Source of the DNA: a virus
Length of the DNA: 32,000 bases
Virus record (IMG/VR): IMGVR_UViG_3300045988_175865
Coordinates: 1 to 32,000 of that record
Reading direction: 5' to 3' (one strand)
Positions 3,001 through 27,538 of this stretch are shown here, one piece after another; the first letter of the stretch is position 1; each line of letters starts with the position of its first letter. The position numbers were made by a program, and so were the translations under genes. The notes under the pieces were generated by a model. The model saw nothing but the letters and a program-made list of their open reading frames with translations, made no database searches and was not told the origin of the DNA.

Positions 3001-5537
3001 TAAAATGGGCTGTTTTTGATATAAGTAATGAAAGAAGACGCATTTCTTATGGTTCAGATATTTCATTAGAAAATATCTTTAAAAAAATGCATAGTATTCC
3101 AATTAACAAATCTATTATTTTAGAAAATTATTATAATATATTTGATCCTATATATTTTAAAGATATTCGAACCAATAAATATTATAAAATAAATTCAATC
3201 AAAACGATTTTAGATCCGAATGGATTAATTGAAGTTGCTAGAGATCTAACTGAAGTTGAATCTAATGGATTAGAAACAAACAATACTATTCAGACAACTC
3301 ATATAATAAATACATTATACGATATTGATCAAGTATTTGGTGGATCTTGAGCAATGAAATTTAATGAAGACATAAATCGTTTAGAATATTCTGAATCTAA
3401 TATTGATATACTTGAAAATATCGTTAACAAAGAGCAATTAAAAGATAAGTTTATTGCTTATTTAGTTAATAAATCTGCAATCAAAGTTGGAGCAGGAAAT
3501 ATAAATGATTCAAGTAAATGAAGTAACTCTGATGCATTTACTACTATTGAAATGTCTACTAAGTTTGGAGGAGTTCAAATGAACGCTGATCACCATTTAG
3601 ACATGTCAGAGGTTACCGAAATGACGCAAATGATTAGTGCTTTAGAGCAAAATGGATTTACACATGAGTTAGTAACTCAGATTTATAAAGAAATTGGTCA
3701 GATTGTTAAAGAATCCATGAATGATTTGTCAGAAACAATTAAAGCTAAAGATAAAGATCAACTGTATACTATATTAGGTAGATCATTAATTAAAGCTTTT
3801 ATGAATGATGACAAAGATACTTTAGGGTTAGCACAATCATTTGTTTATTTAGCTAATGAAAGTTTTAAAAATGCAAATTTAGATTATAAACTACCATTTA
3901 GCGCAGCAACAATTAATGGAGCTTTTATTGCTACTACAACATCTAACTTAGTTAAAAGTGGAATTAGACGTAAATATTCTGGTATAGCATCTGTACTAGT
4001 TCCTTCTCATAATATGATTCAATACTATAATATTGATGGACTTAATTATCAGTATGAAGAATTATATAATTTAGTAAATACAAAAGGTATTGATCATTTA
4101 TACGATGAAAACGGAAATATTATAAAAAGTAAAGTTGAACGTGCTTTAACAGAACCTATTATTGATGGAGAAATAAATCCTTTTATAATTCCAATTGAGC
4201 CAAATGATATTGATTTCGAAGATACAATTGTAATATTTAATGAAGAAGATAATCCTACTGTTATTAAAATTGATTCCTTAGAGAAATACTATTTATATAA
4301 GCACCAAGCAACCTTAGGACAACAATATTATAACTGAACAATTAAACCTAAAAATCTAAAACAGTCAAATACATTTTTTGATGTAGTTGTAGGCTTAGAT
4401 GGATTTGGAAATGAAATAAATAAACGTTTTAGTATATATGACTTAGATGCAGTAAGAGCATCTTATTATTTAAGTTCTCGTAGAAAACAATTAAAGAACT
4501 GGGAGGATTTAACAGAGTATGAAAAAACATTACTATCATCTGCATTAGGTTTACATCCAATCGATAATATACAGTTAAACATAGATAGTCTATTATCTGA
4601 TTTACAACAAAAGATACAATTACAACTAAATAGTTTAGCTGACAATCAATCTATTATTAATAATACTGCTTTTGGTATTACTAATCCAAATGTTAGAGTT
4701 GTTAAAGTATCTAATGTTAATGTTACTCCAACTCAAATTGTAATGGGGAAAAGGCAAGCTCAACAATTTGGATTGCAAAAAGGAGACTCTATTGCTCAGA
4801 TTAGACAAGAAAAAGAAAATTTCTTTTATAATCGAATGCAAAGTAACTATAATATTGGAAATCCAGATAAATTAACATATGATATTATATTATTTGATGG
4901 AACAGGAAAACAATTCTATGTAAAAGTTTTAAGAACAGAAGAAGTTCCAAAAGCATTTACAGGTAGTATTACTCCAAATCCTGATTTTAAAATTATTGAT
5001 AATATTGTATACTATAATGAAAAAGAATTTTCAACAAATGATGAGAAACAATTTTATAAGTATACAGATACAAATGGAAATATTCATGATTTAATTATTA
5101 TAAATTCTATAGATAGATTAGGTGAATTAAGAAAATCAGGATTAATTAATACATATCAATTTAATTATACTAGCGAAAATACTAAAAAATTATTACCTTA
5201 TCAATTTCGTTATAATATAGAAAATAATATTCCTATCACTTTACATACCAGAGATAGTGAAGGAAACTTGCATGAAGCTAAAATCAATCCAACAGCAGAT
5301 ATTAGTTACGTAAGTTTAAACCAAAATGAAATATATAACTTTAATCAAAGAATAAAACAATTAGCGTTTAATCAATATGAAGCATTTGAAAAGTCTTTAC
5401 TTCATGTAGGTACTCGCATACCGTCACAATCAATGCAGTCATTTGCTCCTATGGAGATTGTAATGTTTACAGATAGTGAAGTAAATGATGTTTATGTAGC
5501 TAAAGTAGTTACGTGAATGGAAGGCTCCGATTACGAT
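1..5537 (+). CDS. Giant virion-type protein, exon 1 (5' end outside window). Ends in a beta-prime-like DPBB catalytic domain of a single-chain crAss/YonO/QDE-1-type RNA polymerase.
   Basis: One frame (codon starts divisible by 3) is open from nt 3 to 5537 if the in-frame TGAs at 1107, 1497, 2535, 2829, 3348, 3519, 4335 and 5514 are sense; there is no in-frame TAA/TAG. Seven ORF-track pieces (126, 1251, 1575, 2610, 2835, 3552, 4743) share this frame. RIPSQSMQSFAPMEIV...VVTWMEGSDYD (5415-5537) resembles RNAP beta-prime RAPTLH..QAFEPVLI...NADFDGD. Confidence 0.75.
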
Positions 5538-6465
5538 AAACTTATCATGTCGTATTAAAACTCTTTTAATTGCTGGAAACTCTGACCGCGTTATGGCGAA
5601 GACAATCAGCAGCCAAGCCATATAAAAATGGAAGGTTCAACGACTAATATTAATAACTTAATAATTCGACTTTAATAGTATGAAACAGTTAAAAACACAT
5701 TTAAATAAAATAGGAAGAAATTTAATAATTGCTATGTCTATAGGGGATGGGCATATAGCTAAAAAAGGATATTTAGATATAAATCATTGTGAAGCTCAGA
5801 AAGAGTATTGTTTATGAAAATGGCAACTTTTAAAAGATAATGGAGTTAAAGTTGGCACGTTTAGAGAATGAAAACAAATAAATGGATATTCTAAAGGTAA
5901 AGAAGTAACTAAATATGGATTTCAAACAACAGTACTTGATTTTTGTAAAGTACTTAGACGAGTTGAATATGAGTACGGAAAAACTAAATATAATAAAAAG
6001 TTACTTAAGCGACTTGGAGCTCAAGGGTTAGCAATATGAATAATGGATGATGGAGCATTACTTCGTAGATCTAAAACAAATAAAGATGGAATACGAACAT
6101 ATTCAGGATTTTATATTACAATATCTACGTATTGTCCATTAGAGCAAGCTAATGATATTATAGAATATTTTAATGAAGAATGAGATATTTATCCGACTAA
6201 GGTTTTTGATAAAAGGCAGCAATCCTATATAATTAATTTTTGTGCCAGAGAAGGTAGAAAATTAATAGAAATTATAAAACCTTATATGTGTCCCCACATG
6301 ATGTATAAGGTTCTTCCTGATAAAATAGAATGTGAAAACTACATGAAGTTATTAAAAGAAACAGCTGAAACTGCTGTTGAAGGTACACTAGAAATAGTGG
6401 AAATGGAGAGCGCGAAAGCGAAGATATAGTCTGATCTATATAGAAATATATAGTTAACACAATTG
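5538..6465 (+). mobile_element. Group I self-splicing intron 1 (928 nt) with an internal LAGLIDADG endonuclease ORF
   Basis: P1: exon UACGAU (5532-5537) pairs with intron GUCGUA (5549-5554), with U.G at the splice site. Core elements are AAUCAGCAGCC (about 5605-5615), GGUUCAACGACUA (5634-5646) and AAGAUAUAGUCUGA (6421-6434). A GAAA-capped hairpin CUAUAUA/UAUAUAG follows, and the intron ends AACACAAUUG with a terminal G at 6465. The host reading frame shifts across the insert, and splicing restores it. Confidence 0.85.
5680..6429 (+). CDS. LAGLIDADG homing endonuclease (double-motif), encoded in intron 1
   Basis: ATG at 5680, TAG at 6427. Motifs are LIIAMSIGDGHI and GLAI-W-IMDDGAL. There are four in-frame TGAs (5815, 5869, 6037, 6180), one at the conserved Trp of the second motif. 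The 3' end overlaps the intron P7 core. Confidence 0.88.
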
Positions 6466-7077
6466 ATAGATAAACAATATATCCTTGGCTATTCATTATC
6501 ATCTAATGGTCGTATTCATACTGATGAAAACTCAGCACCTTATTTACGAGCTGATGCATTAAGAAATAGAGTTGTAGATGGTGTATTTAGTATTATTCTT
6601 AATCCTAGAAACCAAATTAACTTAACAATGCCAGTAACTACTGATCGAATGCAAAGTCTTGCTAAAAGATCTAAAATGGGTGAAGCTGCTAAATATATGA
6701 GTCCTTACAATCCAGCAAGTAAGTACTTAATGCAGATTCAAAATATGGTTGGTAAAGCAGTTATTGGTAATGTTGCTACGGCATTAAAAAGTTTCTTTGC
6801 CTTAAGCAACGTATATAATACCAAGTTTAGAGAGATTAATGAAGCAATTCAAACTGGTAATTTTGATATAGCTAGAACGATGTTAAAAAGATATACATTT
6901 ATCCATAATGATAGACTAATAACATTAGCTAATGTTAATATGGAAGTATTTGAGAGTCTACCTGAAAATACTCCTGAAGATATTAGACAAACTCTAGCTC
7001 AAGTAATTAGTTATGAGGATGCCTTAGATGATCAATCTATGGTACTTGGAGAACTTTTAAATAGTGCTACTGATTTT
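6466..7077 (+). CDS. Giant RNAP-like protein, exon 2
   Basis: Starts IDKQY..., completing GSDYD|ID. This is the ORF-track 6463 frame, open to about 7077; beyond that the translation becomes a hydrophobic run (FFIRKLLNNLPILIFIIIFAL*) typical of intron read-through. The 3' boundary is uncertain by a few nt. Confidence 0.65.
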
Positions 7078-8372
7078 TTCATCAGAAAATTATTGAATAA
7101 CTTGCCTATATTAATTTTTATTATTATCTTTGCACTATAGATAAAAATAATTTAAAACAAATTAATATGGCAAAGAAATTAACAAATGAAGAAGTTGAAA
7201 AACTTCATAAAATGTATTTAGAAGGAATGACTTGTGAAGAAATTGGAAAACTTACAGGTCATAAAACAGAAACAGTATCTAAATATCTAAAAGAGAATTA
7301 TGATATAAAGCCTCAAAGAAAAATTGATTTAGTAATTTTATCAAAACTAGCAAAAGAGGGAAAAACAACTAAAGAAATGGCAGAATATTTTAATGTACAT
7401 CCTTCTGCTATATGCTATTGAAAAAAGTATTTTAATGAAGGAGATCTAAAGATTTCGCACCCTTTTTTGCAAGAAGATCATCAATTATCTCATCTACAAG
7501 AACAAATGATTCTTGGCAGTTTATTAGGAGATATGAACATAGGAAAACCTAGAAAACATCATCCTACTTGTAGATTATCCTTAGTACACTCAATTAAACA
7601 AAAAGAATTATTTATGAAGAAAGTAGAAATTCTTGGAGAATTTATGAGTAATTATAGAGAATATAGTTATTTAGATAATAGAACAAATAAAATATATTCT
7701 ACTATAAGAGGAAATAGTAAATCTCATAAAGTATTTAATGATATGTATAATAAACTATATATTAATGATATTAAAACAATTACTAAAGAATATTTAGATA
7801 TGATTAATCATCCAATAGCATTAGCTTACTGATTTATGGATGATGGAACGAATTCTGGACAAATAGCTACAAATTGTTTTTCTTTTGAAGAGGTTAAATT
7901 ACTATCGAATTGACTAGAAAACAAATTTGGTATTATTACAACAATGCACAAAAATTTAAGAAATTATACTTTATATATAGTTGCTAGCTCTAGATTTGAA
8001 TTTGATAATTTAATTTCTCCTTATATTATTCCTTCTATGAAATACAAATTAAAATTTTCTGAAATAGCAGAGTCAGTTAACTCCGTGAAAACGGGAAAGC
8101 CCTTAGAGATTTAAATACTAAACTATTATAGTAATATGATAGTGGCTAAGCTAATCACTTAGATATAGTAATAAGTTTAAATATTGGGTAATCCGTTACT
8201 AAGCTTCCTAATAGGAAGAAAGTTCAACGACTATCGAAATGCAGAAATGACAGAGTAGAGTAGAACTTAAGTAAGTTCGAAGTGCGGAGATCCTGTATAG
8301 GATAAGATATAGTCTGAACTCATAGGAAACTATGAGAGAACTTATGGAAACGATAAGTTCGTAACAAAATTG
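7078..8372 (+). mobile_element. Group I self-splicing intron 2 (about 1.3 kb) with a 5'-located HTH-LAGLIDADG ORF
   Basis: The structured 3' core (8115-8372) contains GGGUAAUCCGUUAC (about 8186-8199), AGUUCAACGACUA (8221-8233) and AAGAUAUAGUCUGAAC (8304-8319), then a GAAA-capped hairpin CUCAUAG/CUAUGAG. The end AACAAAAUUG (G at 8372) is nearly identical to the ends of introns 1 and 3. The 5' splice site is provisional (7074-7078): the U-run 7074-7079 can pair with GAAAAU at 7085-7090. Confidence 0.75.
7167..8114 (+). CDS. Homing endonuclease: two N-terminal HTH modules plus a LAGLIDADG domain, encoded in intron 2
   Basis: ORF-track 7167 and 7467 pieces are in the same frame and are joined by TGA at 7419. 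Further TGAs lie at 7830 (ALAY-W-FMDDGTN) and 7911. TAA at 8112. Motifs are LGSLLGDMNIG and WFMDDG. Confidence 0.85.
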
Positions 8373-10637
8373 AATGCAAAGGAATTAATCCTTAAAAAAA
8401 TTAATGCAGATACAAACTGGGTAGATATTTATACTATTTCTCTTATGTTAGGTGAATCACTAGATGAAATTGGTAATTTAATGATTGATGATGATATAAC
8501 AGAACTAGTAAATGATTTTACTACTAGTATGTTTAGTGATGAACAGAACTATGATAAAGTTCGTTATGTTGCTGATAAAGCATATACCTCTGAAGGAGAG
8601 AAAAAAGAGAAATATCTACAATTGCTGGATAAAGTTATATCTGCGGATGAAGTACGTATCTTAGGAAAGATACTTAAAATTAATCAAGGTCTTCCTACAA
8701 ACACTTCTGATTTATATAGTTATATTAAATCTATTGAAAAATATATAGAAAGTAGGTTTAATAGACAAATACTAGAAAAACAAGAAGAATATTTAAGAAT
8801 TGAAAAGGAGTTAGAAAAAACTTGATTAACTCCTGAAAAGAAGGAAATATTAAAAGAGGAACGAAGATTACAAAAAATATATCCAGAATTAGAAGAAGGG
8901 TCTTCATTATATAATTTCTATAATAAATACAATTTAATATATGAAGATATAAATGGTAATATTAGACATGGAGATTTAGAAGCCAAACTTGGTAAACCTA
9001 AAGAAGCTATAAAGGCTAGACAAGATTACTTTAAGTCTAGAAAAGAAATGGCTAATATCTGGCAATCTTTTGACTTAGTTAGATTTATTACCGATCCAAT
9101 CTACAAACAGGAAAGTATTGAAAAATATGAACAAAATAAGGTTAATTTTAATATTTTGGAAGTAATCAGTGCAGTTCCTCATTTTAGAGAAATGTTTAAT
9201 GTTCTTGCAATTAACAAAAGTGTTCTTAATAGTTTATCATCTAGAAATAGGTTAGAAGATATAATTCTAAACCAACTTAGTAGGAACTTTGCTGGAGTTC
9301 GTATGGATGTAAGCAAACCACTAAATAAACTTGAAATTAGAACTATAAAAGATCAGATAGATAAGTATCTTATTAGATCTTGGATTATTAGTAAAGGAAT
9401 TGAAATAAATGTTCCCGCTAGTCCTAAGAATCCAGCTCCTTATATATTAAGATTGGATAATGAAAATAATATTAACAAGTTTAGAAGTTATGTTGAAAAC
9501 TACGCTATTCCTTTATTAAAGGATAAGTTGAAAAATAATAAGTTTGTTCAGCTATTAACTTTTGGACTAAGACAAGGAGTTCCATTCTATAAGCTACCAC
9601 TTAACATGGTTCAAGTTGATAACACTCAGAAGACTAGGGCTTTATACGAAGAAGCATTATATGCTTTTAATAACCTTAATAAGGTCAAAATAACTGGTAT
9701 AGATATGAACTTAGTGGATATGTTTTATCTATATAACTTAGTTGTTAATCAAGATAAATTTGGTCCTAATTCTATGACTAGGATATTTGAAGACTTAGTA
9801 TCATCTGGTAATGAAGATCTTCTTATATATGATTTTAATAATTGAATTGATAGTCAAAATATTGAAGACTTAGTTAACAGATTTAGAACAGAAGAAAATA
9901 GTATTAGGTTTAATTTAGTAGAATCAACTCCTATTGTAGATGACACAAATTCTGATATTGGATTTAAAGAAACTCCTTTAGAAGAGGATATTGAAGAGGC
10001 TCAATATGAAGAATTAGCAGATAATCCTGTTAAAGAAAATAATGAAGTAGCTGAATATTATCAAACTAACCCTTCAACTAAATCAAAACTTATAACAATA
10101 ATTAAAGAATCTAATTTAAAAGGACTTCACATAGTTACAGATTCTGATTTAGTTAATGAAGATTCTACTACTAGAAATGCTAGGGGATTTGTGAAGAATG
10201 GTGAAATCTATATTAATGTAGATAGAGCCGAAGATGATACAGTAGTCCATGAATTTAGCCATTTATATTTAGCAGATGCTAAAGTAAATAGTCCTAATGA
10301 ATACTATTCAGTACTAAGTAGAGTTAGAAATACAGGTACTTGGAAATATATGAGAGAGATACCTGAATATCAAAATAAAAGAGGATCTGATTTTGATGAA
10401 GAGGTTCTAGCAACTTTAATTGAGCGAGCATATAATGAGGGATTAGGAGGAGCAGATTATGATGTTGCAATAGATGCTCTGAATCTTACATCTCCAGAAT
10501 TTAAATCATTTATAAAATCTGATATTCTACCATCATTAGGAGAGACATTAATAGAGAATTATAAGGTATCTCAAAAGATAGCTACACTTAAAAATAAGCT
10601 CATCAAAGATAATATTATTAAAGAGGATTGTAAATAA
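8373..10637 (+). CDS. Giant RNAP-like protein, exon 3, with a C-terminal zincin-like HExxH module
   Basis: ORF-track pieces 8370, 9048 and 10191 share one frame and are joined by TGAs at 8823 and 9843. HEFSH lies at 10248-10262 in the context GFVKNGEIYINVDRAEDDTVVHEFSHLYL. TAA at 10635-10637. Confidence 0.7.
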
Positions 10638-13600
10638 TGGAATGTACATATGAAACTACAATAAACGGTAAGAAGATAAAGTTCAGCTCCGAAATGGAGC
10701 TGGACAACTTCTTATCAAGTAAATTAGCAGATTATCAAATAAACGAATCAGATTTAACTTTTCAAATTAATCCTATAGATAGTACTATAGAGAAGGTAAA
10801 TGCTATTACAAGTAAAGTTAAAAATGCTTCTATAGAATCTGTAATTATAAATGATGATGGAGATTCAGAAACTATACTTAAGATTCCTGACTCAATAGGT
10901 ACTACTAGATTTATTACATCTAATGGGGATCCTTCTAATATGCAAAAGGAATTAGTTCCTCCTTTTAACTTAAATGATTTCTTAAAAAAAGAAAGAGAAA
11001 GATTAAGTGCAGAAGGAATGACTAAATCTCAAATTGATTCATATTTAGAAAAGTTACAAAAGTCTTGAACTCAGTTAACTGATTATGGTACTGAAATACA
11101 TTCCTTATTTGAAAGTATTATTAATAATACTACATTCAAACCAACTAATTTGAGTGAAGAACAGGTATTACGTTTAACTGAAGAATTTAAATCCTTTATT
11201 GAAGATATTAAATCTAAATATGGTAAAAATGCTAAAATCTTAACAGAAGTTCCTATAATATCAGATAAAATTCATGAAGCATATCAATCAGAAGGAATTA
11301 AAAGTATTAATGGTAGAATTGATATGCTAGTTATTGACCAGAGAGGATTTGCTCATATTTATGATTTTAAAGTTTCTAGAAAAGAAGTAGGAATATGAGA
11401 GGATACTAGAAACATACAAGGATCAACTACATGGCACTCTACTAAAAAACGTTCTGTGGGGTATCAGTTAGGAATATATAAGAATATTCTAGCACAATAT
11501 GGCATTACTGTAGGAGAAACAAACGTTGTTCCTATTAAAATAGATCCAGAATATAATGAAGATGGAACTATTAATAAGCTAAATGATGCTTATATTGATT
11601 TTACTAAAATAAAAGTAAATCCTAATGCTCCATATACAGAAACTATAAATACTATTCTTCCAGTAAAAACATTACTTGATGATATTGATCTTATAAACTC
11701 AATTCAGGAACCAATGACTAAATTTGTTCCTAATTATGCAGTAGAAACTCAGGTACAGAGAAATACAGTTACTGTGGATAAATACATTAATAATCCTAGA
11801 ATTGTACACTATATTGATGACACTGACCCAGAACGAAAGTTTGGAAAATACTGAATTTGGAATAAATATAAGAAGAATCGTAAAGTATATGCTAAAACAG
11901 AGGAGGAACTCAGAGAAAAAGTACAAGAATTAGTAAATGAAGAAAATAAACATATTCACTCTGAAATGTCTACCTTAGCGGATACCATTCAACAAATTAT
12001 TGAAGGATATGAATCCATTGATGACTTAGCTGCTGATAACCCATTTAAGTCTGATTATTGTAAAAAGATATTTAGAAAATATTTAGTAAAAAAGAGTGAA
12101 ACTGACTATGGATGAACTTTTCAAAATAATCCTAAATTTATAGCTGCAGGTATATTTGTATTTACTAAGGATGGTAAAATGGAAATAATATCTGTTACTC
12201 ATAATGATATTCATTCAGTTGTTAATTTAGGTCTTGGCAAATCTATTCAAGGAGCAACTAAAAAGGATAGTGATATTGATAGTCATGTAATAATGCAAGC
12301 ATCTAACGGTAATATTGACCTTGTTAAAGTTATGTGTTTATTAAATAATATGCCTGAGGTACTTAAAGGATACAAAGTTAATAAAATAGAATCACATAAT
12401 ATTTGAATTCAAAAAGGTACTGAGACCTATTTAGAAACTCTTTTAGATAATTTTTCTGAATTATGCAGGATACATGGTATTACCAATAATCTTACATCTC
12501 AAAATTTTGCAACAACATTAGAAGCAGCTGTAAATATAATAAGAGATACTGCTGGTGAAGAATTACTATCTCACATGGGTAATTGAGAATTTAATTTTAG
12601 TCCTAATGATATTGTAAATGGAGTTCCATTCATCTTGCAGAAAATGGAACAACTAAGAAAATTAAAATCTGCAGATGGCCTTCGTACTGCTTTAAGAGAA
12701 GGCAAATGAAATTTTGATGATCCTATTCAGCTAGCATATATGTTATTAGGCAGAGCACTAAATAAACTTAACGGATACTCTATTTATATTGAACAAGATC
12801 CTAAATTGTGAGTAAATTTTTCTAGGGAAGGATGATACACTGGTTCATATGTGAATAGTGCTAGTAACTCTTCTTCTAAAAATATTCAAACATTAAGTAA
12901 AATATTTTCAGTAGCAGAAGCTCATATTAGAAGGAAAGAATTATCATACAAACCTAGGATTAGTAAAGTAGTTAAGGCTTTATATGAATACAATCACAGA
13001 AATAGACTTATTGGAGGTGAGGTTAAGTTTTTTGATAACTTATTTGTTAAGGATACAAACGGTAATATAGATAAATCATTTAGACTAAAAAATCCTTCAG
13101 ATAGTAGTTTGGCTAAGGAAGAATCTGACTTTATTAAGATGTTTCTAGAGATAGTAAATGATTTTAGATTTGATGGTAATCAAAGTAAAATAGCTAAAGC
13201 CATTGAAGACGGTTCTTACTATGAAGTTCCTGTTTCTATGGGAAGTACATCTACTCAAATCCACAATAAAGGATATAAACAAGCCTTTACATCTAAATAT
13301 AATGAAGCTTTAAACTTTCTAAAACTTCTTCCTGAACAAGAGCAACAATTTAGGGAATCAAAAGGAGAGCCAAAGGTATATAATAAATATAGATTAAATG
13401 GACTTAGTAGATCTGATTTAATTGAAAATTATGGGATAGATGGTCTAGAAACTCAACTTGAAGATTTGCTATTAAATGTCATCCATACATACACAATGGA
13501 AGAAGTAATGAATGAATATCTTCCCAGACTTCAAGGTATTAAGATTGCCTTACAATATCAAACTGGGATGTTTGGAGTAGTTACTGATCATGTTTTAGAA

Positions 13601-15037
13601 TATATAGATAAATTTATTGATGCTAACGTTTATAGTAAGCCTATTATGGCTAAAGAATTGCAAGGTGCATATAAGATGTTATCTGTAGTTAAATCAATAA
13701 CAACAGCTACCGCTCTCGGTTTAAATCTTAGATCAGGTATTCGAGAAATGATGCAGGGAATGTGAATACATCTAAGTAGAACTATGGCAGAAGCTTATGG
13801 AAAGGATCAGTTTACTAAAAAAGATGTTGCTAAAGCATGGGCTATTATATTTAAACAAAGTGTTAAAGATATTAATACTTTAACATTAATTGATGCCTTA
13901 AATGTGGATTATGGAATGGCTAACGCCGATCCCCATCAAGTCCAAGAGAGACTAAGTTCATCTAAAGCAGGTATTAAAAATTTAGATTCTGATTCACTAT
14001 ACTTCTTTAATAGAGTACCTGACTCGTATCATAGAATGGGATTATTAATTGCTAAGATGTTGCATGACGGATGTTATGAAGCTCATAGTATTGTCAATGA
14101 CCAACTTATCTATGATTTCAAAAAGGATAAAAGATTTAGTTTATTGTCTGATTCTAAAGCTGATAAGAATTCTATAGAGTATAAAAAGCAACATGCTTTA
14201 TATACTGCTATGAGAGAACAGTTTAATAGAGAAGGATGAAATATCCAAGATGGAGATGATTTACCACGGGCTTATACTATTCAAGAAGGAACTAGTATTA
14301 AATCGTTTGCGGAATTATGCTTTGGGCACTATGATAAAAGTACGCAAATGCTTATGAAACAAATGTTTCTAGGTGCTATGATTCTACAATTCAGAACATT
14401 CCTATCAGCTAAGTTTGAACAGTGGATATTAAAGCCAGATACTTATAATCAAGGTCAATACACTGAAAAATTTGATGAAAATGGAGTAAGATATATTCGT
14501 ATATTTACATTTGATGAAAAAGGAATTCCATCTGTTAGAATCGGTCTTGAAACAGAATTAAAACCTGATGATATTTGGGAACCTTACATTGAATGGCAAG
14601 GCAGATTTATGGAGGGAATTGCATATTCAATAATTAGTTTTGGAAAAACATTATACAAGTTAGATTTTAATGGTTTTAAAGAACTATGAAAAAATCCAAC
14701 TAAAAGAGCTAATTTCTATTTATTCTTACATGATATGATCTGAATGTCTATACTTATGTGAATTGTTAAAGCTCTATTTTTATCTGAAGAAGAAGATCTT
14801 GGACCTGTGGGTCATTTAGTAGGTACTTCATTATATACATCTTTTTCTGACGGGCCAATTACTAATATTATGGCTTCAATGTTTGGAGATTTAAATCCAC
14901 CTATGCATAGCATAGTTGTGAACTTATATAGACAAACTTCTGGAATAATTACAGGAGATGTTAATTTATTTGATGCTAGTGTCAATTCATTTGGAGCATT
15001 AAATAGTTTAAAATATATTGGTGATCAGTTAGAATAA
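10637..15037 (+). CDS. Giant protein 2 (about 1466 aa) with an N-proximal PD-(D/E)xK (RecB/Cas4-like) nuclease domain and hydrophobic C-terminal segments; probably a virion or ejected protein
   Basis: ATG overlaps the upstream TAA (TAATG at 10635-10639). Eight ORF-track pieces (10637 to 14807) share one frame and are joined by about 14 in-frame TGAs, ending at TAA 15035. Nuclease motifs are GTEIH (11087), GRIDML (11312), IYDFKVS (11357) and QLGIY (11465). Confidence 0.7.
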
Positions 15038-15085
15038 AAAAAGAACCCCTTTGTCGTACGCATAGTACAACAAAGGGGTATTTTA
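15038..15085. terminator. Bidirectional rho-independent terminator between the convergent modules
   Basis: CCCCTTTGT (15045-15053) pairs with ACAAAGGGG (15069-15077), and the stem extends by GTAC/GTAC. It is flanked by an A-run (15035-15042, a U-run for the minus transcript) and by TATTTTA downstream on the + strand. Confidence 0.75.
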
Positions 15086-15104
15086 TAAATTTATAGTTAA
15101 TAGA

Positions 15105-15611
15105 TTACTTGGGAATTAACACCATGTTCATTCTTTTACCTTCCAACTTTGGTTTAGATTCAACTTTAGCAATATCTTCAAGATCCGTAGTCAAACGTAA
15201 CAAAAGAGATTCTCCCTGATCTTTAAACATAATTTCTCTACCTTTAAACATTATGTATGCTTTTACTTTAGCTTTTGAATTGATAAATTCTCTAGCATGT
15301 TTTAGTTTAAATTGATAATCATGTTCGTCTGTCTGTGGACCAAATCTTAGTTCTTTAACTATAACTTTCGCTTGACCTGCTTTTAAGACTTTTTCCCGTT
15401 TTTTCTGTTGGTATAGAAATTTCTGATAATCTTGAAAAATACATACTGATACTTGGTTTTTATTGTTATCAATATATACTGATAGTTCAATTAAATCAGT
15501 ATTAGTATCTACAGCCTTCCTTAAAGCATCAGAAAGAGAAATTAACTCCCCGCTATCTTTTATTCTGATAATCTGAGAGTTAATTTCATAATTTATAGAG
15601 TAATTTTTCAT
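15105..15611 (-). CDS. infC: Translation initiation factor IF-3 homologue
   Basis: 168 aa covering both IF-3 domains. VKELRFGPQTDEHDYQFKL, FKGREIMFKDQG and EGKRMNMVLIPK match E. coli IF3 VKEIKFRPGTDEGDYQVKL, FRGREMAHQQIG and EGRQMIMVLAPK. The N-domain (IRIKDSGE...DLIEL...CIFQDYQKFLYQQ) also matches. No TGA; ATG start. Confidence 0.9.
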   Translation of the reverse strand: MKNYSINYEINSQIIRIKDSGELISLSDALRKAVDTNTDLIELSVYIDNNKNQVSVCIFQDYQKFLYQQKKREKVLKAGQAKVIVKELRFGPQTDEHDYQFKLKHAREFINSKAKVKAYIMFKGREIMFKDQGESLLLRLTTDLEDIAKVESKPKLEGKRMNMVLIPK

Positions 15612-15779
15612 TTACTTCTTTACTTTCTTATCATTATTACATACTGTACAAGTACCTACTCCAGTTTTTTCATTTATATTAAAAACTCTTTTAAATTTAC
15701 CGTAAGTAGTATCTTGAAACTTGTGAACAATATTATTTTGTGCACAGCTGTTACAGTATTTTATTTCTGTATTTGCCAT
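15612..15779 (-). CDS. Small CxxC...CxxC zinc-ribbon protein (55 aa) with a basic tail
   Basis: Translation: MANTEIKYCNSCAQNN...GTCTVCNNDKKVKK. It is below the ORF-track length cut-off. Its stop abuts the infC ATG. Confidence 0.5.
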   Translation of the reverse strand: MANTEIKYCNSCAQNNIVHKFQDTTYGKFKRVFNINEKTGVGTCTVCNNDKKVKK

Positions 15780-15800
15780 TTTTATATATTTTAAAATTAA

Positions 15801-16496
15801 TTATTTAAGTATTTTAGAAGCTAAATCTGAAACTTTATTAAATAGATTCTCGATACTTCCATCATTATTAATGATATAATCAAATTTATTATTTTGAAAT
15901 AGTTCTATTACTTCACTTTCACTACGATGAGACCCTGGAATTTGATTTCTGTCTATATAAATAACTATTCCATTATTATTTTTTACTTGTTCATATTCAT
16001 TAATAAATCTTAAATCTGATATAATAATATTATCTTTATCTAATAAAGTTCTTAGTACTCAGAAGTTATTTCCAAAATATTCTCTTATTATTTCAGTTCC
16101 AAATATTTGTAAAAGTTGTCTAATACTAATATAATAGTTTGATATAACATTTAACTTTTTTGATTTTATCATTCTGCTTAGTTGCTTATCTGTGATCATT
16201 AGATTATTATCAGGAAAAGCTGTAATATGGATACTCTGTAGGTTAATATATCAATTCTCCTTGAAATCTCTATCATTAAATTTTTCAACTGGAACATTAA
16301 TTAAAACAGATAAAGCTTCCTTCATTGAAGAGGCGAAACTTGTGATTTCATATTTAGATACAATAAAATCATATACTAGGCAATACAACCAATATTGTCT
16401 CATTCATTTGGGAACTGAAAGACAATATCTTATCATATGGGCAGTTAAATCCTTACCAGAATTTTTAAGCCCAGAAATTGCTATAATAGTCTTCAT
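15801..16496 (-). CDS. Deoxynucleoside monophosphate kinase (T4 gp1-like)
   Basis: MKTIIAISGLKNSGKD (P-loop), RQLLQIFGTEIIREYFGNNF-W-V, ISDLRFINE and INNDGSIENLFNKV parallel T4 gp1 LSGVKRSGKD, RRLMQALGTDLIV, PDTRQDHE and ITNDGSLEELFSKI. The ORF is 232 codons only if two in-frame TGAs are sense. It lies antisense to ORF-track 16192..16668. Confidence 0.85.
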
Positions 16497-16499
16497 TAG

Positions 16500-17714
16500 T
16501 TATTCAAGTGTAAATTTAGCAGTAAAGTTCATATTAGGATATGAATCCTTAAGGGACCCATTATACACTGAATATAACTTTTTTATAATGCTGTCCTTAA
16601 TAAAGTTTCTAGATAGTTCTTTGTCTTTGCTGTTAGTACTATTTAAGTACAATTTGTCTATTATATAGTTAATAAACCCCTCATAAACTTCTTCTTTTTT
16701 TATCTCTAAAATAGATAATATATAGTTAAATGACTTAGAATTATAAATGTTAGATTCTTTAATAATTTTCCAATTGTGTAAGAGATAAATACTAATTATG
16801 CATTGGTACTTTTTTATATTATACGAAGATAGAAGCTTTATACCTAAAGTAATATCATCAAGATTAGTAGATAATATCATTTTACCTAAGCTTACAACAC
16901 TATCTTCTGTTAATTCAAGTTGATTATTAGCAACAATTTCATTTAAATCGGAATCATACATAATATCTGAATATTTTGTTTGTAAATTTTCGATAAATTC
17001 AACTTCTTTAATATTAGATAGTAAAACTACAGAACCATAATATATTTGTTTACAATCGTTTGGTAACACAGATCCATTTATTAACATAGAGGCCCATCCA
17101 TATAGTCCTTCAAGATTTGGATCTTTATATTTGTTAAATACAGAGTTGAAATATGAAGATTTATTAGGGTCTAAAATCTTATCTATAATATAGTCTATAA
17201 AATAATAGCAGTTTTTACTTGAGGAATACAAAATTAAAACGTCCTTAATCTTTTTAGATGATACTAACGATGATACTTCATAGGTCTCAAAAGATATTTT
17301 ATCGCTTATAACAATAGCATCTGCTTTAGATGGGTCTAAGCAACGTTTAATATTAGTTAAACTATTAAGGTTACGTCGTGGATATTCACTGGTAGGATCA
17401 AAATATATCTTTTTTAAGTTAAGTTGACTACTAATTCTATGCTTAGAATTAATTTTATTATTAATACAAGTACTATCTCCAAGATATATACCTTTTGCAG
17501 TCACAGGTGTAGTAACTATTTTACCATTCTTATAGTATAGATAAGAAGAACTATAAAAATCAGCATTATACCAAATATAACTGTGTTCAGTGTCTCCAAA
17601 GTCGTTTAATCATACCAGATCTGTTAAACTAGCATCCTCAACATTAGTATCAAATCTTGTTTTTTGGTTATATATAATATATTTTATATTATTTTTATTA
17701 ATATGTAATAACAT
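16500..17714 (-). CDS. Hypothetical protein (404 aa)
   Basis: ORF-track 16500..17504 extends upstream in frame through one TGA to the ATG at 17714. It is tightly packed between its neighbours. Confidence 0.6.
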
Positions 17715-17715
17715 T

Positions 17716-18798
17716 TTAAATAAGTTTTGCAGCTAATTTTGGGTTAAGTAATAGTTTATTACATTTACCAGGATAGTGTTTGTTTAGTGTTCTTACTAGG
17801 CTAAAGAGTAGATCTTCAGTTAACAATAACTTATCATTATCAACTATCCTAAGAATACGATCTATAATTAGGTCCATTTTACACCCAGGTTTACTAAGAT
17901 ATAATAAGCTATAATTTATAAATCTAGTGGTAATTACAGAAGCTATATCGGCACGATACTTACCTTTATCATATAATTGATTCTCAAGTATCCTTTTAAT
18001 ATCGTTCCAATCCGTATTAACTAGTTCTTCTGGGGAAGGAAGTTTATCTAATTTATTAGCTATGAATGTAGTAAATAATCCCCCAACAATATCATCACTA
18101 TCAAGAAAACATCCAGAAGCTATTTGCAGAATAAAGGATAAATTCTCAGGTTTAGACCAATCATCAATACTAGAAATAGTATTAATAAACATAGTATAAT
18201 TGCGAGCATTAATTTTAGACTGCCTAGATTTTGAACGGTCCATTAATTCATCACTATAAAGAAGCATAAAGTTAATCGCCTGATTATTATACCCTTTTTC
18301 CTCGGCATATTTAGCCCAATCATATTTATCAAACTTAATATTAAAGTTTAACATACGGGTTTTTATAGCCTCATCAATTTCTGTTACATTAAAATCTCCC
18401 CCTTCAGGATTAGCTGTTAAAATAACAGTACTATTAGGAGGTAATTTCCAAGAGAAATATTCTTGTCTTGATATAAGCTCCATAATAGCAGCCAATACAA
18501 TTGGAGAGCTACGATTCACATCGTCAAGATTCAAAATTGTAGGTTTACTTAGATCAATACTTTTTATCCATTCTGGAATTGCATAGCTCATTCTAGTTTC
18601 CTCAGATATTTCCCAACCTGCTTTACTATAACTTTCTATAAGTTCTGCAGTTATCCATCTACATTCATCATTTTTACATACATAGTGCTCTTTAATTGGC
18701 CACCCGCAAATTTCTCCTGGGTCTGAAATTTGACTAAGGTTTTTCTTGATGTAATTAGCACCAATTTCACTAGCTATTTGTTCGATTAAACTCGTTTT
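17716..18798 (-). CDS. MoxR/AAA_5-type AAA+ ATPase, exon 2
   Basis: Begins KTSLIEQIA (the second half of Walker A). Walker B-like ILNLDDVNR, sensor-1-like VILTANP, and DEAIKTRM. No TGA; all eight Trp codons are TGG. Confidence 0.8.
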   Translation of the reverse strand, partial: KTSLIEQIASEIGANYIKKNLSQISDPGEICGWPIKEHYVCKNDECRWITAELIESYSKAGWEISEETRMSYAIPEWIKSIDLSKPTILNLDDVNRSSPIVLAAIMELISRQEYFSWKLPPNSTVILTANPEGGDFNVTEIDEAIKTRMLNFNIKFDKYDWAKYAEEKGYNNQAINFMLLYSDELMDRSKSRQSKINARNYTMFINTISSIDDWSKPENLSFILQIASGCFLDSDDIVGGLFTTFIANKLDKLPSPEELVNTDWNDIKRILENQLYDKGKYRADIASVITTRFINYSLLYLSKPGCKMDLIIDRILRIVDNDKLLLTEDLLFSLVRTLNKHYPGKCNKLLLNPKLAAKLI

Positions 18799-20215
18799 CA
18801 ATTTTGTTATCTCTAGAGCTTTTTATCTCTAGATTCTATATCTTCATATTCGATATAGTTCAGCATATCTTTTCACCTCTAAAAATAGTAAGGTGGAGCA
18901 CACTCGTGGGAAAATTATATTCTGTACAACAGGTTCATTTCCTATGCGTTGCACTGTAGCAAATCATTTAAATCTGCTATTAGCTCAGGATTAGCATCTC
19001 AGCCTTCCCTGAATTTGCGCTCTAATAATTTTAAAGATTTCTCTTTAAAACGGCAATCTTTGATTTTATTAAATATTTGATATTTTCTATCTAAATAAAT
19101 TGTTGATTTATAATATAGGTGATATAAGTAGGCAGTTGCCTTTATTCCCGAAAAACTAAATGCAAAAGTAAAATCGCTATGATTATTAGAAAACAAATGT
19201 CTAGGCTCTAAGTAGCTTACCATTTTACTTAAAAATTCTTTTGCACCTAAACAGCTTATTTCTGGTTTATCATATAATCCTAATGACCCATCACCATCAA
19301 AATATCCTCTAATAAAATGTCTTATTAAATCTTTAGACTTAAAGATATTTTCATTAGGAAATTTTAAAGTCAGTGACTTTTTAGGAGTACATCCGTAAGA
19401 ATTTAATGTTTCTCATAAGTGTTTATTTGTTAGAGCAAATCTACATCTAAAATATTGCTTATTGTTACATATAATAGATGATATTTTTACTCTATTACCT
19501 GTTACTTGAAAAAACTTCTGTAATTTATATAAATGTTCCACATCAGATCCTTTTAAAGAAACTTCAAAATTATAATGAGGTTTTCCATTTTTAGGAATTG
19601 AAGCAATATATCCATCAGCAAAAATAAAACCCAATCAATAAGCTTTTTCTTCGGTATCTATAATATCAAAAATGTGTTCATTAAATTTTAGCATATTTTG
19701 AGTATTAATAACTGGTATTCCAAGTTTCTTTAATCTAATAGAAAAATTGCTTCGACTAAATTTATATTTATTACTTATTTGTGTTAGGCTATAACCATTA
19801 CTATACATCTGCACTGCCTCTTCAAAGTAAGTATCTAAATTACTCTTTCGTATATTAATGTTATTATTATGAAGAATAGTGGAAATAGTATTTCTGGATA
19901 CATTATATAGTTTAGCTATATCACTACAAGTTTTACCCAAATTATATAGTTTACAAATATTAATTTTTTCAGATAATATTAATTTACTACACTCTCTACA
20001 AAGAGAATTTCTATTAGCTACACGACTAACTGTAGTAGGATGTACTTTACAAATTTTACTTATATCTTTAATCTTATAACCTTGATTATATAAATCAATA
20101 ATCTTATTTTCTAAATCATTACTAATTTTTTGCATAATATTTAAATTTTAAATAAATTAAATCTATGCAAAAGTAATAATATAAAACAATTTAATCAAAT
20201 ATTTTATAATAAATT
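18799..20215 (-). mobile_element. Group I self-splicing intron 3 (about 1.4 kb) with an HTH-LAGLIDADG ORF, splitting the ATPase Walker A motif
   Basis: On the minus strand: AAUCCUGAGC (18983-18992), CAACGCAUAG (18942-18951), AAGAUAUAGAAUC (18832-18844), hairpin UCUAGAG/CUCUAGA (18812-18833), and the end AACAAAAUUG with terminal G at 18799. Exon 1 ends ...PGIG (GGU). Exact splice sites are good to a few nt; the P1 pairing is weak. Confidence 0.75.
18942..20135 (-). CDS. Homing endonuclease: three N-terminal HTH repeats plus a double LAGLIDADG domain, encoded in intron 3
   Basis: ORF-track pieces 19635..20135, 19413..19634 and 18999..19223 are in one frame and are joined by TGAs at 19635, 19413 and 18999. 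Motifs are AY-W-LGFIFADGYI and FIRGYFDGDGSL. TAG at 18942. Confidence 0.85.
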
Positions 20216-20338
20216 ACCTATACCAGGAAGTGAAGTAAGTTGAACACTTATTGGAAATTCTCCTCTTTCTTGGAGAGATCTATTATTGTTTATAATATAT
20301 TTTAAAATAGGTTTTATTTCTCCTAATGTTAGTTCCAT
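20216..20338 (-). CDS. MoxR/AAA_5-type AAA+ ATPase, exon 1 (41 codons)
   Basis: MELTLGEIKPILKYIINNNRSLQERGEFPISVQLTSLPGIG. Joined to KTSLIEQIA it gives the Walker A sequence PGIGKT. Confidence 0.75.
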
Positions 20339-20343
20339 ATTTA

Positions 20344-24746: not shown

Positions 24747-25204
24747 TATGTATTCATTTTATAAAACATTTGTATCTTTTCTTTCAAATCATATAGTATT
24801 GCTTTTTCCTGAACAGTATTTACAAATAGTTCGTACATATTATACTTTTCATCATTATATATTAACAACATATCATTAATACTTACATCAATATAATTAC
24901 CTCCTATATAATATCGTAATTTAAAATTAATATATGAATTATTACATTCATACTTAATATCTGTATAACATTCTGAAGCAATATTTAATAAATTATTAAT
25001 AAAGTTCTTTGTATAAGATACAACCATTCTATTTGTAATTGGAATCCTACTCTTTGTTCGGTCTTCAATATTTCTAATAACATCATTTACAACACTATCC
25101 CTTGCTATTATTGTAGCTTGATCTGATTCAATTTTACAAGTTCGAGATTGAAGATTAGAAACAAACAGTTGAATTTCTTTTAAAGTTAAATTTTCATCAT
25201 TCAT
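24746..25204 (-). CDS. Hypothetical protein
   Basis: 152-aa ORF joined to the DNA polymerase stop by a TAATG junction. Confidence 0.5.
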   Translation of the reverse strand: MNDENLTLKEIQLFVSNLQSRTCKIESDQATIIARDSVVNDVIRNIEDRTKSRIPITNRMVVSYTKNFINNLLNIASECYTDIKYECNNSYINFKLRYYIGGNYIDVSINDMLLIYNDEKYNMYELFVNTVQEKAILYDLKEKIQMFYKMNT

Positions 25205-26129: not shown

Positions 26130-26514
26130 CATATCCATTTTAATTTTCGACTATATCTTAATTTTTATATCTAATTTGTTCTGAATTTAATTCAATGTAG
26201 TGTCATTTAAAGCCTTTATATGAAGCTTTTGTACCTTGACAACAACAATAAATGGATATAACCAAATTAAATTTATAAAAATTCGCGGCGTTTCGAATAA
26301 AACCTTATAAAGTTTTATCCTACTCTCTTTCGAGATAGTCTGTGAACCTTGATCCTATAAGGATCCTTGGCTGCGGATTATAATACTTATTAAGTTTTTA
26401 CTTTCTCATAAGCGTTATCTTATGTGCTACACTATGTATTACTACTAGCTGCAGTATTAATAAGTTAAATTAAGTTCCCGCAATTAACCGCGTTTTACTT
26501 GCGCCACTATATTA
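26130..26514 (-). mobile_element. ORF-less group I self-splicing intron 4 (385 nt) in DNA polymerase motif A
   Basis: On the minus strand: P1 is exon UUGCGU with intron GCGCAA (U.G at the splice site). P10 is intron AUAGUG with 3' exon CACUAU. Core elements are AAUCCGCAGCC (26369-26379), GGUUCACAGACUA (about 26335-26349) and AAGAUAUAGUCG (about 26148-26160), with terminal G at 26130. Removal gives exactly 650 codons. Confidence 0.9.
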
Positions 26515-27538
26515 ACGCAACATCTATATCAATAAGCATTTCATCTTTTGTAGGTATAATTTCCTCAGGTTTATTAACACTATGAATACCTCCAACTCCA
26601 ACAGTATATTCTAATTCATCAAATATAAAATGTTTCTCATATCCTTTACGTCCAGGAGAAACTGTTTGCTTTTTCATATCAGCTAATACACTTTTAAGTA
26701 TAGGTGATTCAAACTCAATAAAAGGTAAAATAACCTCATTTAATGGAATTAAATCGCAAGGTGACCTCAAATCTTTAATTTGATTTCAGGTTTGTCCTGT
26801 TTTTTCAAGATACTTTTGAGTAATAATTTTCATTCCAATATTAACTCCATCTTTATTAAGTACCTTTACTCCATACTCATCTTCAATAGCTATACGTAAA
26901 TCAATATCCTTTTTACATCTATTTAATAATTCCTCAGTAGAATCAACATCATTAATATTATATTCTATCATTTTAGGAATTTCAGATACAGGAAGATAAT
27001 CTTGGAAATCGCCTTCATATTCTTGAACATTTCGAAACTGCATAGTTACTTGCATCTCCTTTAACCCTACTCTCAACTTTTGAGAATAAAGCATAGTTAA
27101 CAAGTCTAATGTTTCAAAATAAATTTTATATTTCCACTTTGTTCAAGAACTAAAATTAGTATCAGTAGATTGAATTATTAAATTACTAAGTTTAAATAAA
27201 GATGCGCATATCTCTGAATACGACATCTTTAACATTACTTTATGAAAATCAATAATATAATTAATAATAGGATTATCATAATGAATATTATTGTATCCAC
27301 AAAATATTTTATCTGTTTTAAACTGTAAGTTTGTAGTATAGTTTCTTTCTCAAATACCAATTTGAGATTGATTTCTAACAGTTCAAAATAAATCTACTAA
27401 CTCTTGTAAATTATTCTTACGTTCAGATATTTCAAAAAATAAGCGTTCTCCTGTTTCTGTATTTTTTACAACACAGTGAAACACATTAGGAAATATTTCA
27501 ATATCATAAACGTATACAGTTTTATTTCTAATTAACAT
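26515..27538 (-). CDS. Family B DNA polymerase, exon 1 (3'-5' exonuclease domain and start of palm)
   Basis: ATG at 27538. Exo I is YVYDIEIF and Exo II-like is GYNNIHYDNPII. At least four in-frame TGAs. It ends ...IDIDVA + t, and splicing restores DIDVASLYPS. Confidence 0.85.

Follow-up and report, generated by a model that had tools for sequence, protein, structure and literature searches.

Huge phages carry the translation initiation factors IF1 and IF3, which has been read as a way of intercepting or sustaining host translation (PMC7162821, Al-Shayeb 2020). Phage initiation factor 3 (IF-3) is also on record as a PHROG family and in annotations of jumbo phages. How the bacterial factor works is best seen in Escherichia coli, where residues R25, Q33 and R66 touch the elbow of the initiator tRNA: exchange R66A raises initiation at AUA 1.5- to 2-fold, and the triple mutant (R25/Q33/R66) raises initiation at AUU ~5-fold and slows IF-3 dynamics, R66 being termed 'well conserved', not invariant (PMC9723500). 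The gene, infC, starts with AUU in E. coli and with AUA in F. johnsoniae, which results in autoregulation, and in Bacteroidales-type hosts, which initiate without Shine-Dalgarno pairing, the role of IF-3 is an open question (PMC7797042). Here we analyzed an IF-3 gene in a 32,000-nucleotide stretch of viral DNA (IMG/VR record IMGVR_UViG_3300045988_175865, positions 1 to 32,000; hereafter the window). Given that phage IF-3 as such is already known, the novelty of the present gene lies in its distinctive N-domain. The genome is that of a ~166 kb, low-GC (28%), TGA-recoded gut phage whose host probably belongs to the Bacteroidales, and the gene in question probably encodes a functional IF-3 that supplements or replaces the factor of this host.

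Profile searches and the predicted fold identify the open reading frame (ORF) as a genuine full-length, two-domain IF-3 (Table 1), as the first-pass annotation had claimed from the DNA letters and translations. Against Pfam, the protein scored 112.2 bits with IF3_C (PF00707; E 1.1e-32; curated cut-off 34.8 bits), residues 85-168 aligning with positions 3-86 of the 86 in the profile, and 37.3 bits with IF3_N (PF05198; E 3e-9; cut-off 26.9 bits) over residues 6-74. Both domains thus exceed their cut-offs, the margin being far smaller for IF3_N than for IF3_C. The NCBIfam equivalog TIGR00168 (infC), whose cut-off is 60 bits, was matched with 131.4 bits across 165 of its 170 positions, PHROG 9787 ('translation initiation factor') at E 2.2e-31, and IF-3 chains of Geobacillus, E. 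coli and Thermus in the PDB at E 1e-27 to 2e-28. All motifs quoted in the first-pass annotation were seen, i.e., QQKKREKVLKAGQAK (residues 68-82), RFGPQTDEHDYQFKL, FKGRE and EGKRMNMVLIPK. An AlphaFold2 model computed from an input alignment of 38 sequences reached a mean pLDDT of 90.6 and displayed a beta-alpha-beta-beta N-domain, a linker helix (62-79) and a beta-alpha-beta-alpha-beta-beta C-domain. Its top Foldseek matches in the PDB were IF-3 chains (9a5a_B, 5lmn_X, 9ss1_F3); the modelled C-domain matched 1tig with a target-normalised TM of 0.93 (root-mean-square deviation 1.1 A) and the modelled N-domain matched the IF-3 N-domain of H. pylori (6o6d) with a target-normalised TM of 0.77.

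The window IF-3 belongs to a tight group of phage proteins, ~100 clusters at 90% identity, which are 67-100% identical to it and 165-168 amino acids (aa) long. The residue counts given here refer to 101 full-length members of this clade; conserved positions are those shared by at least 85% of 22 cellular sequences, and they are mostly retained in the seven other phage IF-3s compared. Alignments indicate that the C-domain is host-like and the N-domain remodelled: identity to Bacteroidales IF-3 amounts to 64-71% in the C-domain and to 35-41% in the N-domain, which is no nearer to these proteins than to E. coli IF-3. In the E. coli C-domain, Y107, K110, R133 and neighbouring residues have a role in 30S binding. 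The equivalents of Y107 (phage Y99) and K110 (phage K102) are invariant among the 101 members, as is that of Y75; the R133 equivalent (phage R125) is kept in 99 of them, and where E. coli has C-domain arginines, the residue types match those of Bacteroidales IF-3.

In the N-domain, the near-universal SPNAxPPVC(R/K) loop has been swapped out across the clade, with an insertion of 1-5 residues, and alignment places replacements at all four positions corresponding to E. coli P58, A60, P62 and P63. The AlphaFold2 model shows a longer beta-hairpin at this site (strands 39-47 and 53-60). The equivalent of R66, situated after the conserved cysteine, is isoleucine in 96 members, valine in four and threonine in one; the G28 equivalent is deleted, and lysine occupies the G121 position without exception (101/101). 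Other positions persist: the R25 equivalent (R16) is kept in 98/101 members and that of Y70 is likewise retained, while Q33 falls in a segment that has no aligned counterpart in the phage protein. The loss of R66 together with the rebuilt hairpin, R25 being retained, suggests an altered coupling to the initiator-tRNA elbow, and the stringency or the kinetics of start-site proofreading may possibly be altered as well. With neither the C-terminal tail of Prevotellaceae IF-3 nor the N-terminal extension of the Alistipes and Tidjanibacter proteins, the phage factor represents a minimal IF-3.

The history of the gene was traced in a tree built by neighbour joining (NJ) only, with a cellular set of Prevotellaceae, Alistipes, Tidjanibacter and unnamed Bacteroidales, to which the huge-phage, Atu_ph07 and Phosso IF-3s were added. 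The phage clade was monophyletic in 500/500 bootstraps and formed a long branch among Bacteroidales IF-3s; sister-group support stayed below 40% for every Bacteroidales candidate. A grouping of the phage clade with core Prevotella had 0.8% bootstrap support despite the common MKN start and an identical C-domain block. The clade also stood apart from the IF-3s of the huge phages (LR7565xx), Atu_ph07 and Phosso. Because these other phage IF-3s share 29-44% identity with it and lie outside the clade in the tree, we conclude from sequence comparison that phage IF-3 has been acquired several times and that the present clade arose independently from the Bacteroidales IF-3 radiation. As to the age of this event, a point raised in the first-pass annotation, comparison with infC indicates an old capture and not a recent one, the nearest cellular relatives being 57-58% identical.

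Pairwise ratios of non-synonymous to synonymous substitution (dN/dS) were 0.09-0.18 for both domains wherever they could be estimated. Against the sub-clade with 76% identity, the N-domain gave a dN/dS of 0.18, with dS at 1.76 or saturated; the C-domain gave a dN of 0.09, its saturated synonymous sites permitting no ratio. Gene order is maintained across the lineage and runs dNMP kinase, a 55-aa zinc-ribbon ORF, a membrane ORF of 50-58 aa that the window's type has lost, IF-3 and a convergent gene that measures ~1460 aa where it is complete. By these measures of selection and synteny, IF-3 is an old, selected, syntenic core gene of the lineage. One relative (L088, 10001-10507) carries a mosaic IF-3: its N-domain matches the window protein exactly (dS 0.05), whereas the C-domain has a dS of 0.70; this points to recombination within the IF-3 gene between sub-lineages.

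The context of the gene informs on its expression. Since the TAA of the 55-aa ORF abuts the IF-3 ATG, translational coupling of the two is likely. In relatives the spacer between the upstream small ORF and IF-3 is 1 nucleotide (nt), or the genes overlap, and the place of the 55-aa ORF beside IF-3 is kept in relatives whose IF-3 is 67-76% identical. Its product has a Lys-rich C-terminus and homologues only in this phage lineage (16 clusters, 71-96% identity); no match was found in Pfam, NCBIfam or PHROG. One homologue (P0134) sits on a 91-kb contig labelled in NCBI as a Clostridium sp. metagenome-assembled genome (MAG); the contig probably comes from a phage and was binned with bacterial DNA. 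Downstream, an intrinsic-terminator-like hairpin lies 25 nt past the IF-3 stop, between the convergent modules, the plus-strand gene ending at 15037. No other terminator-like site occurs in 14600-18000, where shuffles give an expectation of 0.6. As stated earlier, IF-3 is the last gene of the minus-strand module, at the 3' end of a block for replication and nucleotide metabolism. Leaders in this region are AT-rich and devoid of Shine-Dalgarno motifs, and ATG is the start codon of 19 out of 22 called genes; start-codon usage and leader features had been singled out for comparison in the first-pass annotation. Such leaders would fit a Bacteroidota-type host. The Bacteroidetes promoter motif TTTG-N17-21-TAnnTTTG occurred twice against 1.55 expected, which is not significant.

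The IF-3 start codon is ATG in the window and most relatives, and TTG in one (L107). The ATG had been held to set the gene apart from bacterial infC. The start itself is real, but it discriminates only in part: among the closest cellular homologues, infC of Prevotellaceae also begins with ATG (MKNDK...), and the missing near-cognate start (AUU/AUA) is therefore not decisive for membership. At several Bacteroidales infC loci (L070, L057, L064, L076), the frame runs upstream without an ATG, and ATA candidates are present, in keeping with the experimentally mapped ATA start of F. johnsoniae infC.

Our preferred reading, a functional phage IF-3 supplementing or replacing that of the host, builds on homology, selection and genomic context, and the functional steps that we infer beyond homology are the following. 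The host-like C-domain would dock on the platform of the host 30S subunit and would supply the core activities of IF-3, namely anti-association, help in ribosome recycling and support of the 30S initiation complex. Because the gene starts with ATG (with TTG in one relative), synthesis of the phage factor would escape the IF-3 feedback that acts via AUU or AUA starts, and the phage may thereby raise or maintain IF-3 activity during infection from transcripts of its replication module. In hosts whose infC has a near-cognate start, the phage IF-3 could, if it has kept its fidelity, repress host infC and so replace the host factor. The remodelled N-domain may change the coupling to initiator tRNA, with an effect in either direction.

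Several observations weigh against this reading. Phage genes nearly all start with ATG, so that a need for relaxed start selection is not evident. No phage initiator tRNA was found in the regions of close relatives that were covered, and the two tRNA-Met(cat) genes present there are without the three anticodon-stem G-C pairs typical of initiators. The ATG start of Prevotellaceae infC means that neither the escape from autoregulation nor its imposition may apply to the real host, and no Bacteroidales sister group in the tree reaches 40% bootstrap support. Furthermore, the loss of R66 and the rebuilt loop could reflect a weakened rather than a tuned canonical function. A more far-reaching variant, to which we give a small chance, is a functionally distinct IF-3 in which a host-compatible C-domain is combined with a rebuilt N-domain (R66, hairpin, G121K), such that start-site selection or recycling would favour phage messages. 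If true, the phage would own an initiation factor of altered specificity that forms part of a UGA-reassigning translation takeover, instead of a spare host copy.

That the genome is stop-codon-recoded, as proposed beforehand, is evident from the merging of ORFs. When TGA was read as sense, plus-strand ORFs that are short in the standard code fused into frames of 1851, 774 and 1467 codons; the total length of ORFs of at least 100 codons rose from 8101 to 12370 codons and the longest from 392 to 1851. No comparable gain was seen in the window with TAG as sense. Direct evidence for TGA as a sense codon comes from the in-frame TGAs of the 1466-aa convergent gene, and five sampled relatives that bear IF-3 (L094, L095, L105, L106, L107) are all TGA-recoded. 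Concerning its meaning, the N-terminal part of the window's DNA polymerase shares 64% amino-acid identity over 341 residues with the polymerase of crAss-like phage cr114_1, and its four TGAs align to W, W, K and F, in a reference protein with only 11 Trp among 665 residues. TGA probably encodes Trp, although these four codons form a small basis; in the alignment of the ribonucleotide reductase (RNR), the TGA position lies outside the aligned region. In-frame TGAs extend beyond the late genes (polymerase 4, dNMP kinase 3, primase 6 in a relative), while a far-upstream early region adjoining tRNA genes (L153, L165) is nearly TGA-free. The replication module therefore does not conform to a strict scheme in which the standard code serves early genes and recoding only late ones. 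The idea that the minus-strand module is written in the standard code was likewise rejected, given the TGAs in the dNMP kinase gene directly upstream of IF-3 and in the polymerase gene. The IF-3 gene itself contains neither TGA nor TGG and so encodes no Trp. It had been argued that for want of TGA it would be translatable by an unrecoded host; this does not hold as evidence, since no Trp codon of either kind is present in the phage gene, and 13 bacterial homologues are devoid of Trp codons as well.

Next comes an explanation that sharpens the first-pass suggestion of a phage reprogramming initiation as well as termination, with IF-3 as a specialised factor tied to TGA recoding. It might keep recycling and the 30S pool going under TGA suppression and host read-through, or its N-domain might bias initiation towards phage mRNAs. 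Every sampled IF-3-bearing member of the lineage is indeed TGA-recoded, the lineage carries further translation genes (9 tRNAs in close relatives, 18 in the 76% sub-clade, and a YqeY-like protein), and the N-domain changes are fixed at near-universal positions, among them the tRNA-elbow contact R66 (PMC9723500). However, co-occurrence in one clade amounts to a single evolutionary event and not to a correlation. IF-3 is also known from jumbo phages in culture for which no recoding is described (Atu_ph07, Phosso, fHe-Yen9-04), and from loci of huge phages where no reassignment does much to the longest ORFs. The factor has no known role in stop-codon recognition, and among the code-change genes of the Borges preprint, which are suppressor tRNAs, release factors and TrpRS, IF-3 is not mentioned. 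The window and ~95 kb of close relatives yielded no tRNA with anticodon TCA; suppressor tRNAs occur in only 35% of TGA-recoded genomes (Borges preprint). We regard a recoding-specific role of IF-3 as unlikely.

The translation genes of the lineage were also recorded in their own right. Close relatives with an IF-3 that is 94% identical (L175, 1311-19118; L165; L169, 1915-15435) have nine tRNA genes, i.e., Leu (two), Met(cat) (two), Gln, Thr, His, Asn and Ser, and the 18 tRNA genes of the 76%-identity sub-clade include Trp(cca). The YqeY-like protein (PF09424, E 1.4e-10; L153, 949-1353) is encoded next to tRNA genes and is related to the tRNA-binding tail of GatB.

Alternatively, the phage protein could act as a competitor in host shut-off, filling the IF-3 site of the 30S subunit while its abnormal N-domain inhibits or re-routes host translation. 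The pairing of a host-like C-domain with a strongly diverged N-domain without R66 would agree with such a role, as would a canonical start codon outside autoregulation, and in E. coli, when contacts between N-domain and tRNA are lost, IF-3 is evicted more slowly from the 30S subunit and growth is impaired (PMC9723500). Comparable purifying selection in both domains (N-domain dN/dS 0.18) speaks against it, as does the retention of the R25, Y70 and Y75 equivalents, as in a working two-domain factor, and phage mRNAs depend on the same ribosomes. Shut-off appears to us somewhat less probable than a link to recoding. Large phages often carry auxiliary genes taken from hosts, and the gene could in principle be a neutral passenger, a recently captured host gene without a role for the phage; a clade that spans 67-100% identity with conserved synteny, 101 full-length members without a pattern of truncation, the distance to the nearest cellular relative, which implies an old capture, and above all the low dN/dS at saturated synonymous sites make this very improbable, the selection analysis effectively refuting it.

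The first-pass annotation had named near-identity to a bacterial infC within bacterial flanks as the sign of a misassigned gene, and neither was seen. The best cellular identity is 57-58%, and the nearest cellular IF-3s, from Bacteroidales (53-58% identical), are located in thrS-infC-rpmI-rplT. A scan of GTDB in which 185,579 prokaryotic species were represented by a single genome each gave no IF-3 match above 57% identity. The exact protein is recorded on 251 contigs, the longest measuring 193 kb, contigs that measure 165.8, 166.5 and 168.1 kb and come from different samples share one gene order, and related copies lie on IMG/VR viral contigs of ~164-171 kb. Neighbours in the window are genes for dNMP kinase (upstream of IF-3 in the same tightly packed minus-strand block), ThyX, DNA polymerase, a DUF2201/VWA metallopeptidase-like protein, an AAA ATPase and LAGLIDADG homing endonucleases, and further out the lineage genomes encode a helicase, dUTPase, class II RNR and primase; no rRNA or ribosomal-protein gene was present in the ~120 kb inspected. 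On gene context and viral collections, IF-3 is assigned to a bona fide phage genome. The low GC content (27.8% in the window) and the probable use of TGA as Trp would also fit Mollicutes-like bacteria, and some 'phage' IF-3s in databases are bacterial, yet the recurrence of the same junctions on many independent ~166-kb contigs, the phage replication genes and homing endonucleases as neighbours instead of thrS, rpmI and rplT, and the distance of the cellular homologues leave contamination, a chimeric assembly or a code-4 bacterium a negligible probability and exclude them for practical purposes.

A bacterial entry of this kind is MT837394.1, the top match in the phage collection (52% identity). 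It was rejected as kin of the phage clade, since its 200-aa infC is of bacterial type, carries a C-terminal tail and lies in DNA with a GC content of 45%. This GenBank 'Bacteriophage sp.' virome fragment (L007), whose infC (6340-6942) starts MKNDSLKGQ, is probably bacterial DNA in virome data.

Table 1. Position of the IF-3 gene, its domains and associated features in the window
Feature	Position	Strand	Details
IF-3 coding sequence	15105..15611	(-)	168 aa; ATG start, TAA stop; Pfam, NCBIfam, PHROG, PDB, AlphaFold2/Foldseek
IF-3 N-domain	15411-15611	(-)	residues 1-67
Replaced N-domain loop	15444..15479	(-)	codons 45-56 (VYIDNNKNQVSV), followed by Cys57 and Ile58; alignments
IF-3 Lys-rich linker helix	15360-15410	(-)	residues 68-84
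IF-3 C-domain	15108-15359	(-)	residues 85-168
55-aa CxxC...CxxC zinc-ribbon-like ORF	15612..15779	(-)	TAA abuts IF-3 ATG, zero spacer
Intrinsic-terminator-like hairpin and T run	15035..15079	(-)	hairpin 15079-15045; 15-bp stem, 7 G-C pairs, 5-nt loop
dNMP kinase gene	15801..16496	(-)	PHROG 139, E 1.3e-42; Pfam DNMK; 3 in-frame TGA
Convergent 1466-aa gene	10637..15037	(+)	14 in-frame TGA; same product called on independent contigs
DNA polymerase, N-terminal part, crAss cr114_1 type	26507..27538	(-)	4 in-frame TGA

Apart from IF-3, the genomes differ in their DNA polymerases. Phages whose IF-3 proteins are identical can have polymerases of unrelated origin at one shared position (25204-27538, minus strand, in the window): the window, L001 and L103 have the cr114_1 type (PHROG 1252, no Pfam match), and L002 (1-1500) and L104 (13370-15322) have a 650-aa family-A enzyme (Pfam DNA_pol_A). 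BLASTP detected no similarity between the two types. The pattern resembles an exchange of polymerases in situ among phages that are nearly identical. The window polymerase does not represent the family-A enzyme of L104 in interrupted form, a reading that was ruled out because the two are unrelated. The cr114_1-type polymerase of the window is found in two ORFs (26507-27538 and 25204-25917) which are ~590 nt apart (25918-26506), with ~60 residues of its homologue unaccounted for; Rfam gave no group I intron in the interruption. A scan of the whole window with Rfam, at gathering and E-value thresholds, returned nothing, including no group I intron at the split genes.

LAGLIDADG genes (5680-6429, 7167-8114 and 18942-20135) interrupt large genes at 3-10637 on the plus strand and 17716-20343 on the minus strand. 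The giant plus-strand gene is in pieces (3-5558, 6628-7140 and 8445-10637), and the AAA ATPase is split in the window and forms a single 401-aa ORF in L002. To the left of the window, just upstream of its first giant gene, L108 (1690-9738) holds a 2682-aa ORF with 21 in-frame TGAs. The structural side thus appears as a run of giant proteins without sequence matches in PHROG or PDB, except that the 1466-aa protein shows a weak exonuclease-like N-terminus in PHROG. The class II (B12-dependent) RNR of L103 (5033-7573) consists of two ORFs with the break right after the NPCG motif, which suggests another intron or intein insertion. The best matches of the DUF2201/VWA protein, at most 27% identical, are to diverse phages and permit no classification.

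Phage genes for translation factors reveal which steps of host protein synthesis limit infection or are contested in it. Among cellular proteins, the phage factor resembles the IF-3s of Bacteroidales (Xylanibacter/Prevotella, Alistipes, Tidjanibacter) in its two-domain architecture with a Lys-rich linker; Xylanibacter ruminicola has the very same C-domain block DEHDYQFKLKHAREF, and the N-terminus begins MKN where Prevotellaceae IF-3 starts MKNDK. This affinity offers a host-range clue for an uncultivated phage group. It differs from the Bacteroidales proteins in its overall identity of 53-58%, in the replacement of SPNAxPPVC(R/K) and in the presence of Ile at R66 and Lys at G121. The C-terminal tail that it lacks is long and acidic/basic in Prevotellaceae and comprises ~60 residues in X. 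ruminicola, and the missing N-terminal extension ~35-45 residues in Alistipes and Tidjanibacter. Unlike Bacteroidales infC, the gene stands outside thrS-infC-rpmI-rplT, and it uses ATG where several Bacteroidales homologues appear to use ATA.

In its genome, the phage resembles recoded gut phages (crAss-like, Lak, Jade/Sapphire/Agate of Borges et al. and the zeta crAss-like Lera), in which TGA is a sense codon and is used most heavily in the large genes of the structural side (PMC12386605). Large size, AT-richness, gut origin and tRNA arrays are common to both, and its ~166 kb compare with 154 +/- 27 kb for Agate. The polymerase links it to the Suoliviridae crAss-like phage cr114_1 (64% identity); Agate and Crassvirales are candidate assignments. 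Unlike phages that confine TGA to late genes, this one also holds it in replication genes (Table 1). The cargo described for recoded gut phages consists of suppressor tRNAs, RF1/RF2 and TrpRS, whereas here IF-3 is present; in the literature on crAss-like or recoded phages, including the zeta and epsilon crAss-like papers, we found no mention of IF-3.

With the IF-3s of huge and jumbo phages (LR756500-511, Atu_ph07, Phosso, fHe-Yen9-04, PHROG 9787), the present protein shares that it is phage-borne and full-length. Hosts of the named jumbo phages are Agrobacterium (Atu_ph07), Sinorhizobium (Phosso) and Yersinia (fHe-Yen9-04). Those carriers have genomes of 350-735 kb, in contrast to ~166 kb here, so that IF-3 carriage is extended to an abundant UGA-reassigning gut-phage lineage that probably infects Bacteroidales. 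In this clade, selection has tested a natural series of N-domain variants at sites that tune initiation fidelity in E. coli, and the fixed loss of a fidelity-linked contact in abundant gut phages is a clean, testable lead. The clade also stands apart from the other phage IF-3s aligned: the PP motif, G121 and a basic residue at the R66 equivalent each persist in at least six of those seven sequences, and all are lost in the present clade.

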